From: Rubritalea profundi
GTDB taxonomy: Bacteria; Verrucomicrobiota; Verrucomicrobiia; Verrucomicrobiales; Akkermansiaceae
Direction of reading: 5' to 3'
NCBI RefSeq assembly: GCF_002954445.1
Contig: NZ_MQWA01000001.1
Coordinates: 1,988,733 to 2,052,732 of the forward strand
Length of the DNA: 64,000 bases
Numbering within the stretch: the stretch's first letter is position 1; every line of letters begins with the position of its first letter. The notes below the pieces were generated by a model, which was given only the letters and a program-made list of their open reading frames with translations, ran no database searches and was not told the origin of the DNA. The position numbers were made by a program, and so were the translations under genes. This document shows positions 30,264-38,639 of the stretch, in pieces.

Positions 30264-30935
30264 ATGGCGGAATCTGCTAGAATTTCATCTAGTGTTTTCG
30301 TCGTGAAAGAACTCTTCGAACTCTCATTAAATCCCTGGGTATTACCATTTACAATACTGTTAGCTTTATGCTGCCTCTATTGGTTGTTGGCCTTGTTGGG
30401 CACTGTGGACATGGACTTCATTGAATTTGATTTCGACTCAGATACGGATTTTGATGGAGATGTTGGAAATTCAGGCGGTCTACTTACAAGCTTCCTGAAA
30501 CTGGTAAATGCTACCGATGTGCCATTCATGTTGGTGTTAAGTGTCGTGTCGTTGTGTAAGTGGCTCATCAACATCGCAGCCATACTGTACTGGAACTCTG
30601 ATGGGCTCGTATGGCTGGGGTTGGCAACATGGGTCATCGGCTTTTTTGTGAGCTGCCTTATAGCAGCAGTTCTCACAAAGCCGCTGGTGCCAGTGTTTAA
30701 GGCATTTCGTGCAGGAGAAGATGATGAAGAACCCATCCTAGGGCAATCCGCTACCGTTGTAACATCCCATCTAACTGAAAAATTTGGGCAAGTGCGTGTG
30801 TTACGCGAAAAAGGGGCAACGGCATTGGTCAATAGTAGATTGGCCAGTGGCCAGCCCGTACTCAAAAAAGGTGACATCGTCACGATTATCAGCAGAGACG
30901 AGAAAGATGGCGTCTACATTTGCACACAAATTTAA
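30264..30935 (+). CDS. NfeD/YqiJ-like membrane protein with C-terminal OB-fold beta-barrel
   Basis: 223 aa. Several TM helices, an acidic loop (DFDSDTDFDGD), then a soluble beta-rich tail (GQSATVVTSHLTEKFGQVRVLREKGATALVNSRL...GDIVTIISRDEKDGVYIC). Sits immediately upstream of the flotillin gene, as in yqiJ-yqiK pairs. Confidence 0.6.
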   Translation: MAESARISSSVFVVKELFELSLNPWVLPFTILLALCCLYWLLALLGTVDMDFIEFDFDSDTDFDGDVGNSGGLLTSFLKLVNATDVPFMLVLSVVSLCKWLINIAAILYWNSDGLVWLGLATWVIGFFVSCLIAAVLTKPLVPVFKAFRAGEDDEEPILGQSATVVTSHLTEKFGQVRVLREKGATALVNSRLASGQPVLKKGDIVTIISRDEKDGVYICTQI

Positions 30936-30958: not shown

Positions 30959-33043
30959 ATGATAGATACACTGACAAATATAGGGACAATGCATTACTTG
31001 GCATTCGATTTCAGCACTCTACTTGGTGGGGGAGCCATATTCATAGTAGTCCTCGCCGTAGTCGTTTTATGGGTGTTTGCTAACTGTTTCCGTAAAATAG
31101 AAAAAGGCACAGCATTGATTCGTACAGGAATTGGAGAGACTAAAGTAACCTTCACAGGGATGATGGTTTTTCCCGTTGTCCACCGCGCGGAACACATGGA
31201 TATCTCATTGAAGCGCATTGAGATCGACCGGACAGGGAAGAATGGATTGATCTGTAAGGACAACATGCGTGCAGACATCAAGGTTGCGTTCTTCGTTCGT
31301 GTGAACAACGTGAAGGAGGAGGTCATCCGTGTGGCTGAGGCCATCGGCTGTGACCGAGCTTCTTCTGAAACTGAAATTCGTGTGCTTTTTGATGCGAAGT
31401 TTTCCGAAGCACTCAAGACTGTGGGTAAACAGTTTGATTTCATTCAGCTCTACGAAGAGCGTGACACATTCCGTGAAGAAATTCTTAAATGCATCGGTAC
31501 TGATCTCAACGGGTTCGTGCTCGATGATGCTGCGATCGATTACCTAGAGCAAACTCCGATTGAGTCGCTCGACCCTGATAACATTCTTGATGCTGAAGGT
31601 ATTAAGAAAATTACTGAGCTTACAGCAAATCAAGCAAAGCTCTCTAACAATATCCAACGCGATAAAGAAAAAGTCATTAAGCAGCAGGACGTGGAAGCGA
31701 GAGAAGCTATCCTCGAGCTTGAACGTCAACTCGCTGAGACTGAAGCTAAACAGCAACGCGAAGTGCAAGTTGCACAATTCCGTGAGCAAGCAGCATCAGA
31801 TCAGGTGCGTGAAGAAGAGAATCAGAAAGCCGAGCGTGCTCGCATTTCTTCAGAAGAAGAAATTCAAGTCGCTGAAGAGAACAAGCAACGTCAGGTGCTC
31901 GTAGCATTGCGCAATAAAGAGCGTACTGATGCTGTCGAAATTGAGCGTGTCATACGTGAACGTGACCTCGAGATTATCGAGCGCGAGCGTGTCACTGAAC
32001 TCAAATCGATCGAGAAAGAGAAGTTTGTAGAGATCGAGAAGAAGAACATCCAAGAGGTCATCAAAGACCGCGTGGCTCTAGAGAAGACAGTGGTTATCGA
32101 GCAAGAGAAGATCAAGGATACAGAAGCCTTTGCTGGAGCAGACCGTCACAAGCAAGTGACTGTTACTAACGCTGAAGCAGATGCAGCGGATCGACTCATC
32201 CGTGAAGTGAAGGAAGCGGAAGCTCGTAAAGAGGCTGCCATTCTCAAGGCCGACGAAGAAGCCTATGAAGTTCAGAAGTCTGCTGAAGCTAGCAAGCTAG
32301 CGAGTGAGATGAAAGCTGAAGAGCGCATTATCACAGCTGAAGCGGCACTCACAGCATCTGAGAAAGAGGCAAGTGCTAAGAAGATGCTCGCTGAGGCTGT
32401 GACCAAGGAAACTTCTGCTGAAGGCCTCGGCCAGGTAGAGGTGAAGCTTGCAGATGCAGAAGCTCTCAAGCAGCAAGGTGCGGCACAGGCTGAAGTAGAC
32501 GCTCTCAGCTTCGCCGCAGAAGCGAAGGGTATCGAGCAGAAAGCTGCTGCGATGAAGCTCTTTGAAGAAGCTGGTCAGGACCACGAAGAGTTCAAGCTCG
32601 AGCTTGATAAGCAGAAGATCATCGAACTTGCCGAGATCGATGTCCAACGCCAGGTAGCAGAGCAGCAAGCTGTGGTTATCGGTGAAGCTCTCAAGCAGGC
32701 TAAGATCGACATCGTCGGTGGTGATTCAGCATTCTTTGACCAGATCACCAGTGCGGTGACGAAGGGCAAAGTCGCTGACCGCATCGTCAATAACTCTAAG
32801 GTTATTACAGACGTGAAGGAGACATTCTTCAATGGTGACCCAGAATACTTCAAGAGTCAGATCAGTAGCTGGATTGAGCAATTCGGTATCGAAACTGAAG
32901 ACGTCAAGAACCTAACCGTCAGTGCATTGTTAGGGAAGATGATCCCACAAGCCGACGGTGAAACCCGCGGAAAGCTAGTCGGGCTCCTAGGAGCAGCAGA
33001 ACGCTTCGGCCTCACCAACTCACCAGCCTCAAAATTCCTCTAA
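30959..33043 (+). CDS. Flotillin-like SPFH/Band-7 domain protein (YqiK-like) with a long E/A/K-rich coiled coil
   Basis: 694 aa. N-terminal TM helix, SPFH domain (TFTGMMVFPVVHRAEHMDISLKRIEI...), then about 350 aa of heptad-like EA-rich repeats. Confidence 0.8.
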   Translation: MIDTLTNIGTMHYLAFDFSTLLGGGAIFIVVLAVVVLWVFANCFRKIEKGTALIRTGIGETKVTFTGMMVFPVVHRAEHMDISLKRIEIDRTGKNGLICKDNMRADIKVAFFVRVNNVKEEVIRVAEAIGCDRASSETEIRVLFDAKFSEALKTVGKQFDFIQLYEERDTFREEILKCIGTDLNGFVLDDAAIDYLEQTPIESLDPDNILDAEGIKKITELTANQAKLSNNIQRDKEKVIKQQDVEAREAILELERQLAETEAKQQREVQVAQFREQAASDQVREEENQKAERARISSEEEIQVAEENKQRQVLVALRNKERTDAVEIERVIRERDLEIIERERVTELKSIEKEKFVEIEKKNIQEVIKDRVALEKTVVIEQEKIKDTEAFAGADRHKQVTVTNAEADAADRLIREVKEAEARKEAAILKADEEAYEVQKSAEASKLASEMKAEERIITAEAALTASEKEASAKKMLAEAVTKETSAEGLGQVEVKLADAEALKQQGAAQAEVDALSFAAEAKGIEQKAAAMKLFEEAGQDHEEFKLELDKQKIIELAEIDVQRQVAEQQAVVIGEALKQAKIDIVGGDSAFFDQITSAVTKGKVADRIVNNSKVITDVKETFFNGDPEYFKSQISSWIEQFGIETEDVKNLTVSALLGKMIPQADGETRGKLVGLLGAAERFGLTNSPASKFL

Positions 33044-33097: not shown

Positions 33098-33472
33098 ATG
33101 GAATTTTTATATAAAGATGAAAGTTACGCAGTCCTAAGTGCAGTTTTCGAAGTGTATAAAGACAAGGGCTGTGGTTTTCTTGAGGCTGTATATCAAGAGT
33201 GTTTGGAGATCGAGCTGAGGGATCAAAAAATCCCTGCGGTTTCCAAACCTAAACTTGAATTAGAGTATAAAGGGCACCGCCTTCGCAAAATGTATGAGCC
33301 GGATCTGATCTGCTACGGCAAAATTATATTGGAGCTAAAGGCATGTAAATCGATTGACTCCGCCCACATCGCCCAACTTCACAATTATCTTAAAGCTACG
33401 GGTATGAGAGTGGGTTACGTGATTAACTTTGGGAGTTATCCCAAAGCGTCTTTCCAAAGAGTAATCGTATAA
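33098..33472 (+). CDS. GxxExxY family protein (PD-(D/E)xK nuclease-like fold)
   Basis: 124 aa. Contains the family pattern ...VLSAVFEVYKDKGCGFLEAVYQECLEIEL...YEPDLICYGKIILELKA. Confidence 0.7.
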   Translation: MEFLYKDESYAVLSAVFEVYKDKGCGFLEAVYQECLEIELRDQKIPAVSKPKLELEYKGHRLRKMYEPDLICYGKIILELKACKSIDSAHIAQLHNYLKATGMRVGYVINFGSYPKASFQRVIV

Positions 33473-33488: not shown

Positions 33489-36400
33489 GTGGATTCTGTG
33501 TGGTCTGTGGTTAAAAAAAAGATGTCAGAAGATAATAAACAGTTAGAAGGTGGAGCTTACGAAGTGATTCGGGCTCGCTTGGAGAAGCAGTCGGTCGAAC
33601 TTCGTTCACGCTTGGATGCGTTGAACGTGGAGCGGAAGGAAATCTTTGGTGCCGTCGAGTCGTCCCTTGTGTCGACCGAGCGTGTCACCACTGAGCACAA
33701 CTGCGTGCCGCGAGATCTCATAGCGATCGGTAAAAATCGCTTCCTATTCGGATACAATATCCAATTTGGACTGAAGCAGACTACAGATCTCGCAGATGTC
33801 TTTGCTGTCTATCAATACGACCCATCTGATCATAGTTTTACTAAACTATCTATCGATGAGGTAATCGACGATAGCGAGTTTGCGACTGATTTCGCCTACC
33901 TTTACAAGTACTACAAGCAAACGATCTTTGCGAAGTTCATGCACATCGGACCGAATGTGTATATCGCATTACGCGTCGGCAAGGACATCACAGACGTAAA
34001 GACCTTCAAGTTTGTCATCAATGGTGACGGCTCGCTGAAGTATATGGGCAACCGTTTTGATTACGAATACGTTTTCCCTGATCAACATGGCTTTAGCTGG
34101 GTGCGGGTAAATCGCGACATGCACCGCGGTGGTGAGCATCCGCATATTTCTATCGAAGATAAAGTTTTCGTGGAAACTGTGGGAGGTGACCTAACAGTTA
34201 AAATCGAAGATAATACAGCGGATGGCAAAGGTATCTATGCGGAGGAGGTAGTCGACCAGGACCAAACCCTCGATGACGCGGAGATTTCCTATGCGATTGT
34301 TGGGCCGCTTATCATTCTTAAAATTCTTCCTTACCGTGAGAAGAACTACCGTTACCTCGTTTTCAATGAGAAGAACCAATCGGTTGACAGGATCGATGCG
34401 ATTGGTGAGTCCTGTGTGTTGCTGCCAGAAGACCATGGCATCATCTTTGCCAATGGTTACTACCTGCTCAGTGGCGAACTCAAGACATTCGATCATGGAC
34501 TTGAGCATATGCGTTTCGAGCGCAAGATTTCCTCAGCCAATGGTGAGGACACACTCTTTGCGTTCTACAATCGTACCAGCGGTGACTACGCCTTACTCAA
34601 CTACAACTTAATCGAGCAAACCGTAGAAACTCCAGTGGTCTGTAATGGCTACTCGGTCTTCGACAATGGTGAGCTGATCTATTTTAAGACCGAGGACGAG
34701 GCGCAGAAGCACCACACCCTCCAAGTCTGGCAAACTCCCATTCTCTCTGCAGATGCCGTCGCATCGCAAGAGTTGGATAAAGGAAGTTATCTCTATAAAA
34801 TTGGTAATGCCGAGCTGGTTTCCGCAATGGCGGAGAGTAAAGAACTTCTGACGCTGTTAGATAAAGAAGATAACTATGCCGGTCTCTATATCGACCTAGT
34901 GAAGCAAGCGACAGTCTTGCTGGATAGTTATTTCTGGATCTCTAATGAGGCGACCAAGAATCTCGCCGAACCACTTGAAGGAATCCAACAAGCGGCGAAT
35001 AGTGCGATTGAAGAATTTGAGAAAGTTCAACGTCTGAGGAAGAATTCGGCGGAACGAATCAAGGATGTCGCTGCGCGCTGCGAGCGTCTATTACGCGATG
35101 CCGAGCACAGTCCACCAGACGACATTGTCGGTTTTGTGAAGCAACTTGCTGGCCTACGCACCATCCGTGGTGAAGTCATTGGGCTGCGCGAAATGCGCTA
35201 CATGGATCTCGCTCGGGTAGAGGAACTAGAGCAGGGGATTATTGCAGCCACTGAGATTGTCTCAGGAAAGACGGTGAGCTTCCTACTTCTCCCCGAGGCG
35301 CTCGATCCCTACAGAGCGCGTGTTGGTGAGCAACGCAAAATTCTAGCATCCCTCACAAAGGTGACTGAGGCCGATGACCTAGGTGAAGAAATTTCTGATG
35401 CGGGCAAAGAGCTAGAGATGTTGATCGATGTGGTGTCCAACCTCAAGATCGAGGATTCCACTCAGACCACTGCTATCATCGAAAGTATCTCGGCTATCTA
35501 TTCCACGCTCAATGGAGTCAAAGCTGAGCTTAAAAATAAGCGTAAAGAGCTCTCGCGCTCCGAGGGTGTTGCCCAGTTTGGGGCGCAGATGAATCTTCTT
35601 AGCCAGGCAGTGGTCAACTACCTTGACCTTTGCGATACCGCTGAAAAGACCGACGGTTACCTCACCAAGGTGATGGTGCAGATCGAAGAGCTTGAAGGAC
35701 GTTTCGCCGAGTTCGATGAATATGTAGAGGAACTCACGACCAAACGTGAAGAAGTCTACAATGCTTTTGATGGACGCAAGCAACAGCTGCTAGAAGTTAA
35801 GAGTAAACGCGCTAACAGGTTGATAAAGTCGGCTGAGCGCATCCTCAGCGGAATTTCGAACAGAGCTTCTGGGTTTAAAGAAATCAACGAGATCAATGGC
35901 TACTTCGCTGGCGATCTGATGATCGAGAAGGTTCGTGATATCATCGACGAGCTCATCGATCTCGGAGATAGTGTTAAAGGCGATGACATTCAGACTCGTC
36001 TTAAGACAGTCCGTGAAGATGCAGTCCGAGCTCTCAAGGATCGCAATGAACTCTACGTCGATGGTAAAGATGTCATCCAGTTCGGTAAAAATAAATTCAA
36101 CGTAAACACTCAGGAACTAGAGCTGACGGTGTTGCCACAGGATGGGGTGATGAATTTCCACCTCAGTGGTACGGATTTCTTTGAGGAAATTTGCGATCCA
36201 GAATTTCTCGCGACAAAAGATGTCTGGAACCAAGAAGTCATTTCTGAAAACAAAGCAGTCTACCGAGCTGAATACTTAGTGAAGCAACTTCTCGATTCAG
36301 ATCGAGGGCGAGAGCTGGCTAAGCAACCAGAGAGCTGGGTCGCCGACTTGTTACTGCAAACCGTGCAAGAATTCATGCAGCCTCGCTATGCGGAGAGCTA

Positions 36401-38639
36401 TACCAAAGGTGTGCATGATAACGATGCAGCTAGGCTGTTAGCTGCTATTTTACCGATCCACACCGGGATTGGTCTGCTGCGCTTCGATGCGCGCGATCGA
36501 GCACTAGCGATGCTTTTCTGGATTGCTTGGGAAGGTGAGAACAAGGAATTGCTCGCGGGTAAAATCCGGGCTCACGCCAAGCGCAGAGAAATATTTGGGA
36601 TCAATCAGGATGAACAACACGCCTTGGTCAACGAACTCGTCGGCCAGTTAAATACTTGGTCTGGGGTGACTCTAGTTGCTGAGGCTAGAGCTGAAGACGC
36701 AGCTGCTTACCTGTTTGAAGAACTTTCAAATGGTGAGGCCTTTGTTGTCTCTCCCGAAGCTGCGGAGCTAGTGAAGAAATTCAAGCACAGCCTCACCGTT
36801 AAGCACGCAGAGAAGTCCTATGAGGAAACTTTACTAGCTGATGCTGTGGCTAATTACCAAATCAACCAGGACTGGTTAGCTGGCTTCCTGTCGAATAGTC
36901 AGGAGCAGGATGACGCAGGAACTGTCGTTGCTAAATCAGTAGTAGCAGAGGCTGCAGCTCATCTCACTCGGGGAGGCTTTGACCAGCGCGATGTGAAAAA
37001 CGTGCGCGTCTCAGCTGAGGTTTCTGGAATGATTGGTGACCACAAGGTCATTTCTAACGGAGCCTACCAGCTGGATTACAATCAATTCTCCGAGCGCTTA
37101 TCATTGTTCGAGCGAGAGGTCGCCCCCACCTTTGCTTCGTATCAAAAACTCAAGCAAGAGCTAGTGGAGGAAAAGCGTCAGACGATGCGTCTCGATGAGT
37201 TCAAGCCGAAGGTGATGAGCTCGTTTGTTCGCAACAAACTTCTCAATAACGTATTCCTTCCATTGGTCGGAGACAATCTGGCCAAGCAAATAGGAACAGC
37301 CGGCAAGGACACCCGTACCGACCGCATGGGCTTGCTCTTGCTTATCTCACCTCCAGGTTATGGTAAAACAACCCTGATGGAGTACGTGGCGAACAGACTG
37401 GGGCTGACCTTCATGAAGATCAATGGTCCAGCATTGGGCCACAATGTGGTCTCGCTCGATCCATCTGAAGCTCCTAACGCCACCGCTGCAGAAGAAGTGA
37501 AGAAGCTCAACTTGGCTTTGGAGATGGGAGACAATGTCATGATTTACCTCGATGACATCCAGCACACACATTCTGAGTTTTTGCAAAAATTCATCTCACT
37601 CTGTGATGGTCAACGTAAGATCGAAGGAGTCTACAAGGGCGTTGCTAGAACCTACGACCTTCGTGGTAAGAAAGTCGCTGTCGTGATGGCGGGTAACCCA
37701 TACACCGAGACTGGTGGTAAGTTCCAGATCCCTGACATGTTAGCGAACCGTGCCGACACCTATAACCTAGGTGACATCATCGGCGGTCATGCCGAAGACT
37801 TCAAAGGTTCCTACATCGAGAACTCGCTCACTTCTAACACCATCTTGAGTAAGCTCTCTAGTAGAAGCCAGAAGGACGTCTACGCCGTCATGCAGATTGC
37901 CCGTACTGACAGCCAAGAAGGTGTCGACTTCGAGGGCAACTACACACCAGAGGAGATCGGTGAGATGGTGCGCGTGACCAAGCACCTCTATAGGGTACGA
38001 GATTCTATTCTCCGTGTGAATCTCGAGTACATACGCTCGGCTGCGCAGGAAGACGCCTATCGTACTGAGCCAGCATTCAAGCTCCAAGGGTCCTACCGAA
38101 ACATGAACCGCATCGCCGAAAAGGTATTGCCGCTGATGACTGAGAAGGAGGTCGAGGGGCTAGTGGTCGATCACTACGAGAACGAATCTCAGACACTCAC
38201 TAAGGGAGCAGAATCTAACATCCTAAAGTTCCGTGAAATGGAGAATCTCCTCACTGAGGAGGAGACCGAAAGATGGGATGATATAAAGAAAGGCTTTTCT
38301 AAGAACCTCTTGTTAGGAGCTGCTGGTGGTGACAACGATCCGGTCGCCAGAATCGTAGCTCAGCTCACTCAGTTCAACGATGGACTCGACTCTATCAAGG
38401 ACGGCATTGTCCAAGCCTCGACCCACTACGCCGAGCCACAAAGCCTTGGAGAAACTACGATTAGCCATCTAGAAAAAATCATCGCCGGCCTCCGTGCTGT
38501 GCCAGTCGAGGTCGACATCAAAATCGTCCCCGTCGAAGACGTCGATGGAGATGGCCAAAACGATGGTAAGATCTCGGGCATCGAAAAGAGCAAGAAATCT
38601 CCAATAGATATCCAGCCTGAAGTCCGGCAAGGCGAGTGA
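33489..38639 (+). CDS. Giant (1716 aa) uncharacterised protein with a single C-terminal RarA/clamp-loader-like AAA+ ATPase module
   Basis: Uninterrupted 5.15-kb ORF. Walker A is LLLISPPGYGKTTLMEY (nt ~37340-37390). Walker B/sensor is VMIYLDDIQHTHSEF (nt ~37540-37585), followed by AVVMAGNPYTE (compare RarA TTENPYF). The upstream ~1280 aa has no assignable domain, with beta-rich N-terminal ~450 aa followed by a long helical, coiled-coil-like middle. Confidence 0.7.
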   Translation: MDSVWSVVKKKMSEDNKQLEGGAYEVIRARLEKQSVELRSRLDALNVERKEIFGAVESSLVSTERVTTEHNCVPRDLIAIGKNRFLFGYNIQFGLKQTTDLADVFAVYQYDPSDHSFTKLSIDEVIDDSEFATDFAYLYKYYKQTIFAKFMHIGPNVYIALRVGKDITDVKTFKFVINGDGSLKYMGNRFDYEYVFPDQHGFSWVRVNRDMHRGGEHPHISIEDKVFVETVGGDLTVKIEDNTADGKGIYAEEVVDQDQTLDDAEISYAIVGPLIILKILPYREKNYRYLVFNEKNQSVDRIDAIGESCVLLPEDHGIIFANGYYLLSGELKTFDHGLEHMRFERKISSANGEDTLFAFYNRTSGDYALLNYNLIEQTVETPVVCNGYSVFDNGELIYFKTEDEAQKHHTLQVWQTPILSADAVASQELDKGSYLYKIGNAELVSAMAESKELLTLLDKEDNYAGLYIDLVKQATVLLDSYFWISNEATKNLAEPLEGIQQAANSAIEEFEKVQRLRKNSAERIKDVAARCERLLRDAEHSPPDDIVGFVKQLAGLRTIRGEVIGLREMRYMDLARVEELEQGIIAATEIVSGKTVSFLLLPEALDPYRARVGEQRKILASLTKVTEADDLGEEISDAGKELEMLIDVVSNLKIEDSTQTTAIIESISAIYSTLNGVKAELKNKRKELSRSEGVAQFGAQMNLLSQAVVNYLDLCDTAEKTDGYLTKVMVQIEELEGRFAEFDEYVEELTTKREEVYNAFDGRKQQLLEVKSKRANRLIKSAERILSGISNRASGFKEINEINGYFAGDLMIEKVRDIIDELIDLGDSVKGDDIQTRLKTVREDAVRALKDRNELYVDGKDVIQFGKNKFNVNTQELELTVLPQDGVMNFHLSGTDFFEEICDPEFLATKDVWNQEVISENKAVYRAEYLVKQLLDSDRGRELAKQPESWVADLLLQTVQEFMQPRYAESYTKGVHDNDAARLLAAILPIHTGIGLLRFDARDRALAMLFWIAWEGENKELLAGKIRAHAKRREIFGINQDEQHALVNELVGQLNTWSGVTLVAEARAEDAAAYLFEELSNGEAFVVSPEAAELVKKFKHSLTVKHAEKSYEETLLADAVANYQINQDWLAGFLSNSQEQDDAGTVVAKSVVAEAAAHLTRGGFDQRDVKNVRVSAEVSGMIGDHKVISNGAYQLDYNQFSERLSLFEREVAPTFASYQKLKQELVEEKRQTMRLDEFKPKVMSSFVRNKLLNNVFLPLVGDNLAKQIGTAGKDTRTDRMGLLLLISPPGYGKTTLMEYVANRLGLTFMKINGPALGHNVVSLDPSEAPNATAAEEVKKLNLALEMGDNVMIYLDDIQHTHSEFLQKFISLCDGQRKIEGVYKGVARTYDLRGKKVAVVMAGNPYTETGGKFQIPDMLANRADTYNLGDIIGGHAEDFKGSYIENSLTSNTILSKLSSRSQKDVYAVMQIARTDSQEGVDFEGNYTPEEIGEMVRVTKHLYRVRDSILRVNLEYIRSAAQEDAYRTEPAFKLQGSYRNMNRIAEKVLPLMTEKEVEGLVVDHYENESQTLTKGAESNILKFREMENLLTEEETERWDDIKKGFSKNLLLGAAGGDNDPVARIVAQLTQFNDGLDSIKDGIVQASTHYAEPQSLGETTISHLEKIIAGLRAVPVEVDIKIVPVEDVDGDGQNDGKISGIEKSKKSPIDIQPEVRQGE

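Follow-up and report, generated by a model that had tools for sequence, protein, structure and literature searches.

Gene organization of the locus

The analyzed 64-kb stretch of Rubritalea profundi DNA (the window) carries a three-gene unit on the forward strand, which encodes a YqiJ-like membrane protein, a flotillin-like protein and a giant ATPase. A small nuclease-fold gene is situated immediately before the ATPase gene. The four genes are as follows.

30264..30935, forward strand: YqiJ/YuaF (NfeD-like) membrane protein of 223 aa, whose gene opens the conserved three-gene unit
30959..33043, forward strand: flotillin-like SPFH/Band-7 protein, 694 aa, comprising an N-terminal transmembrane (TM) segment and an SPFH domain plus a long coiled coil rich in E/A/K
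33098..33472, forward strand: small GxxExxY/PDDEXK_3 nuclease-fold gene, 124 aa (PF13366, E 2.5e-39; TIGR04256, E 1.8e-37)
33489..38639, forward strand: giant ATPase, whole ORF, with GTG at 33489 and a probable ATG start at 33522 (1705 aa)

The frame at 33489..38639 runs through 1716 codons uninterrupted by stops or frameshifts; the 1716-aa ORF is real, and the fusion artefact that a preliminary description of this DNA had considered is dismissed. An NCBI protein of R. profundi (P0001), which is 100% identical to the giant ATPase, has 1705 aa, and the alignments of homologs begin at M12 (1716-aa numbering, used throughout); for these two reasons, ATG 33522 is probably the start and GTG 33489 is probably not.

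The 30264..30935 product matches YqiJ_N only weakly (E 0.003, short of the curated cut-off) and has three predicted TM segments (residues 20-53, 77-110 and 114-147). The full-length flotillin-like protein is without a Pfam match, and Band_7 (PF01145) emerged only when its first 280 aa were scanned alone (E 2e-6, 28.3 bits versus the 23.6-bit cut-off); the protein has one TM segment (residues 13-48) and no match in the PDB. By hydrophobic-segment prediction, both upstream partners are membrane proteins and the giant ATPase has zero TM segments. A promoter and terminator scan gave counts no higher than those in shuffled sequence, and Rfam returned zero matches for the inverted repeats downstream of the ATPase gene.

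Related loci, 81 overall, span Verrucomicrobiota, Planctomycetota, Bacteroidota, Desulfobacterota, Clostridia and Lentisphaeria, and a YqiJ-like homolog is found at the corresponding position in 50 of them. Of the 64 loci with 2.5 kb or more of upstream DNA, 61 have the flotillin-like gene as the immediate upstream neighbor in the same orientation (39-85% identity), whereas L030, L034 and L049 lack it despite 8 kb of upstream DNA. Downstream of the ATPase there is no conserved gene among the loci compared. The Bacteroidota operons additionally encode PspA_IM30 (16 loci) and CesT_Tir_1 (14 loci). Neither PspA nor CesT was detected by tblastn in the 64-kb window, which therefore represents the "abbreviated operon" of Ravi et al. 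(2024, mSystems; PMC11237479), composed of the ATPase gene and its YqiJ-like and flotillin-like partners. On plasmid pQBR103, the unit adjoins the genes for DUF2491, DUF350, DUF1190 and glutathionylspermidine synthase, a set that has been tied to PspA systems in the literature. The PDDEXK_3 gene occupies the position before the ATPase in Verrucomicrobiales loci only, with remnants in L002, L003 and L006; because of this restricted occurrence and its decay in the three relatives, it was rejected as a functional partner and constitutes an insertion specific to this lineage, outside the core of the system.

Domain organization of the giant ATPase

The giant ATPase is a member of the DUF3686-AAA family, which bears the NCBI/PGAP automatic name "DNA repair ATPase". 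Members of this family combine an N-terminal DUF3686, DUF7902 in the middle and one C-terminal AAA+ module in proteins of ~1600-2000 aa, and the R. profundi protein has all of these features; DUF3686, DUF7902 and AAA are likewise common to all 240 homologs among the matches listed (1544-2044 aa). Since the family has more than 5000 homologs and the AAA+ block retains 57-92% identity across phyla, neither the ORF nor its architecture can be attributed to chance. The architecture had been called unusual in the preliminary description; it belongs instead to a large family found in at least 589 species genomes and already present in the literature (PMC11237479). Outside the AAA+ module, the following regions were delineated.

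33555..33647, forward strand: long N-terminal helix, residues 23-53 (AF2 helix 12-42 in model numbering, +11; pLDDT 85-95)
33663..34733, forward strand: beta-rich propeller-like domain, residues ~59-415, the core of DUF3686
34749..36032, forward strand: long helical region, residues 421-848, resembling stacked three-helix/spectrin-like bundles and containing DUF7902
36066..37223, forward strand: family-specific middle region, residues 860-1245 (AF2 model, pLDDT 85-95)
38424..38636, forward strand: variable C-terminal tail, residues 1646-1716 (pLDDT <50)

The sequence preceding the AAA+ module, initially described as ~1280 unassigned residues, is in large part assigned: residues 37-482 match DUF3686 (PF12458; E 4.3e-181, profile positions 1-448 of 448) and residues 603-687 (nt 35295-35549) match DUF7902 (PF25472; E 6e-27), which leaves only residues ~850-1245 matchless. 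Two other parts of the same description, a beta-rich N-terminus and a helical middle, agree with the AF2 models (pLDDT 84 and 86, the latter for the N-terminal model), in which ~28 strands are predicted at residues 59-415 and helices as long as 58 residues in the stretch 421-848.

For residues ~850-1245, a family-profile search gave zero PDB sequence matches at E<=5 and nothing consistent in Pfam. The AF2 model of the family-specific region begins with a small beta domain (~862-900), continues with a helical domain that bears the invariant G974-x-H976-D977-x-D979, and ends with a long connecting helix (1197-1233). Two candidate assignments were rejected, namely Helicase_IV_N, which matched residues ~850-1245 weakly (E 0.006-0.03) in only one of 37 members, and a second, degenerate AAA+ domain upstream of the AAA+ module, since residues 926-1160 are modelled as all-helical. 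The C-terminal tail has a majority-residue frequency of 0.11 with 57% gaps in the family alignment, and many homologs stop directly past the conserved block without it.

Clade placement of the AAA+ module

A single AAA+ module at residues ~1246-1645 is the sole P-loop module of the protein according to Pfam and AF2, and the position originally given for it is confirmed by the Pfam AAA match (PF00004; residues 1283-1402, E 4e-8). Its features are as follows.

37224..37778, forward strand: AAA+ alpha/beta core, residues 1246-1430 (Pfam AAA/AAA_5, AF2 strand order and hairpin)
37347-37370, forward strand: Walker A motif SPPGYGKT, residues 1287-1294
Residues 1350-1356: Walker B VMIYLDD, with D-D and no Glu
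37617-37658, forward strand: predicted pre-sensor-1 beta-hairpin, residues 1377-1390 (AF2: K1377-Y1382 / V1385-D1390)
Residue N1403: sensor 1, in AGNPYTE
Residue R1421: arginine finger candidate, in LANRAD
Residue R1537: sensor 2 candidate, in the invariant QGSYRN
37779..38423, forward strand: enlarged helical lid and C-terminal helical region, residues 1431-1645 (AF2 helices)

The AAA+ core is the best-conserved segment of the protein (majority-residue frequency 0.77), and Walker A, Walker B, sensor 1, R1421 and R1537 are invariant in 68 full-length homologs with 30-51% overall identity. The segment QGSYRNMNR aligns with the RuvB sensor-2 motif GTPRIANR.

AF2 predicts a beta-hairpin between alpha3 and beta4, before the sensor-1 strand. 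The alignment to ClpB NBD2 is unbroken from Walker A to sensor 1 and runs through this hairpin, the 12-residue segment of which aligns against ClpB NBD2 KGVARTYDLRGKK. On the predicted structure, the AAA+ module belongs in the pre-sensor-1-hairpin superclade, outside the clamp-loader/RarA clade; its nearest relatives are Clp/Hsp100-NBD2 by sequence register and MoxR/dynein/midasin by fold. PDB searches by sequence, whether run with the protein alone or with the family profile, gave matches (p97, RuvB) confined to ~40 residues around Walker A and cannot assign a clade. The classical AAA clade (p97, FtsH, Vps4) lacks a pre-sensor-1 hairpin and carries paired arginines in a second region of homology, a combination that was not found in the module.

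The preliminary description had placed the module in the clamp-loader/RarA clade; combined with the database name "DNA repair ATPase" taken literally, this would make the protein an enzyme for intermediates of DNA replication or repair. The motif-level likeness to RarA is real, as E. coli RarA has the top local hhalign score against the family profile (67.5, 95.5% probability), followed closely by RuvB (66.7). The same reading could draw on weak RuvB_N and Rad17 Pfam matches, on the PD-(D/E)XK-fold gene immediately 5' in the R. profundi genome, and on the Pfam description of DUF3686 as "ATPase involved in DNA repair". However, the RarA match covers 75 columns only, starting at Walker A and ending shortly after Walker B, and relative to RarA the module has insertions of ~12 aa (beta2-alpha2) and ~24 aa (alpha3-beta4), including the pre-sensor-1 hairpin. 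The C-terminal domains of RarA, AAA_assoc_2 and MgsA_C, were detected by Pfam neither in the protein nor in 44 family members, even at E<=1; the protein has no recognizable DNA-binding or nuclease domain, and its closest fold neighbors are not RFC, gamma complex or RarA. Moreover, the conserved neighboring genes encode membrane-scaffold proteins, not DNA enzymes, and the nuclease-fold gene is the decaying Verrucomicrobiales insertion described above. Literature searches did not find DUF3686/PF12458 and did not link "DNA repair ATPase" with flotillin, hence no published support was found for the name; the ATPase also goes unmentioned in a paper on SPFH in P. aeruginosa. We consider a RarA-type role on DNA highly improbable. 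Assignment of the module to another clade, for example MoxR, had been named as the outcome that would overturn the RarA placement, and this is essentially what was observed.

MoxR in the narrow sense, that is, a hexameric AAA+ chaperone that together with a VWA-domain adaptor matures a partner complex or inserts cofactors into it, is suggested by AAA_5, which, like Pfam AAA, matches 44 of 44 family members tested, and by the JGI label "MoxR-like ATPase" on some members. However, the conserved neighbors include no VWA gene, the MoxR model AAA_3 matches only four of 44 members (E >= 0.049), and the hhalign score against E. coli RavA is only 33. In addition, ClpB NBD2 fits the sequence register better, and the AF2 model has no beta-hairpin at the helix-2 position, where the helix-2-insert clade (MoxR, dynein, midasin, McrB, MCM, NtrC) would have one. 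Such a chaperone role is thus quite unlikely.

Walker B ends in D-D, not D-E, and hydrolysis could therefore be weak. At the pore-loop position, the alignment to ClpB NBD2 gives EAPNA without an aromatic residue, which argues against classical substrate threading. Taken together, these two features of the sequence suggest a slow or switch-like remodeller, not a processive threading unfoldase.

Proposed function and relation to known systems

To our knowledge, an ATPase that acts on the flotillin scaffolds of bacteria has not been described. With its large size, conserved motor and near-constant co-encoding with flotillin-like and YqiJ-like proteins, the DUF3686-AAA family is a strong genomic candidate for such an ATPase. 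Because its genes almost always follow those of flotillin-like and NfeD/YqiJ-like proteins, membrane-scaffold remodelling is likelier than a RarA-type or "DNA repair" activity. Judging from this gene order, we favor on balance the interpretation that the soluble giant AAA+ protein, encoded third after a YqiJ/NfeD-like protein with three TM segments and a flotillin-like SPFH protein, is an ATP-driven remodeller of flotillin/PspA membrane scaffolds. The AAA+ modules would oligomerize at the inner face of the membrane, and the propeller and helical arms would bind the flotillin/NfeD assembly at its cytoplasmic coiled-coil parts and, where co-encoded, PspA polymers. ATP binding and hydrolysis could then power assembly, disassembly or turnover of the scaffold in envelope stress, in parallel to Vps4 on ESCRT-III, ClpB/Skd3 on aggregates, and FtsH inside HflK/C cages. 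Points against this interpretation are the three loci devoid of a flotillin-like gene, the lack of a PspA gene in the window, the D-D Walker B and the non-aromatic pore-loop position. More tentatively, the protein might be a dedicated assembly/disassembly machine of flotillin (SPFH) cages and of co-encoded PspA/ESCRT-III-like polymers, a bacterial counterpart of Vps4 drawn from a different AAA+ clade that would grip its substrates via the propeller and helical arms, not by aromatic pore-loop threading. Such a machine would provide the first known energy source of flotillin microdomain dynamics in bacteria.

A different role at the membrane would be that of an anti-phage or conflict system, in which the ATPase, with the SPFH and NfeD proteins as partners, acts as a sensor or executor of a response such as abortive infection. 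Defense islands commonly hold giant single-NTPase proteins, the patchy distribution of the DUF3686-AAA family over many phyla suggests horizontal transfer, and the family also occurs on megaplasmids and chromids, with toxin-antitoxin or methyltransferase genes flanking the ATPase in some loci. However, the PADLOC-DB 2.0 matches (mad8 and IetA, E ~1e-3, 29-119 residues) are marginal and confined to the P-loop region, the flanks are unconserved with no consistent defense-island signature in the 81 loci, and zero relatives were found in viral contigs. The protein has no nuclease, protease, TIR or pore-former effector domain, and the operon is recurrently joined to PspA, CesT and polyamine envelope-stress genes. 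We regard an anti-phage function as unlikely and retain scaffold remodelling as the preferred interpretation. In the light of these results, the database name "DNA repair ATPase" is misleading, and the RarA assignment, although plausible, was wrong; residues K1293, D1355/D1356, N1403, R1421 and R1537 are supplied as targets for mutation.

The system itself is not new. The flotillin/YqiJ/AAA+ operon and its architecture were described in 2024 by comparative genomics, with proposed roles in sub-membrane dynamics (Ravi et al., 2024; PMC11237479), and the exact protein is already in NCBI. The R. profundi unit has the same domain order and both upstream partner genes, and nothing essential differs; its copy has an extra PDDEXK_3 gene before the ATPase, and the AAA+ clade and motif details, absent from that paper, were worked out here.

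Compared with RarA/MgsA, the giant ATPase is similar in the stretch from Walker A to Walker B and in the "NP" after sensor 1, but it has two extra insertions, no RarA C-terminal domains, lower fold similarity and an unrelated genomic context. With the MoxR/dynein/midasin group (AAA_5; CbbQ, NorQ) it differs in having one AAA+ module instead of six concatenated ones, no VWA partner, poor similarity to RavA and no evident helix-2 insert. The pre-sensor-1 hairpin is common to the predicted module and to Clp/Hsp100 NBD2 (ClpB, ClpA D2) and human CLPB/Skd3, a disaggregase with a repeat domain and a single C-terminal NBD2-type AAA+ module; the unbroken alignment with ClpB NBD2 includes a KHSVSRL-like segment. 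Clp/Skd3 and the giant ATPase each have an N-terminal protein-binding domain, helical elements and one AAA+ module. Unlike Clp, which has an aromatic GYVG pore loop and a D-E Walker B, the giant ATPase has EAPNA and D-D, a much larger lid, no Clp N or M domains and 1700 aa, and its genomic partners are flotillin and NfeD instead of DnaK or ClpP. HflK/C-FtsH and Vps4-ESCRT-III/PspA offer a functional analogy, as an AAA+ protein is genetically coupled here to an SPFH scaffold and, in Bacteroidota, to PspA. In contrast to FtsH and Vps4, the giant ATPase has no protease domain, MIT domain or TM anchor, its AAA+ module is not of the classical clade, and synteny is what ties it to the membrane scaffold.

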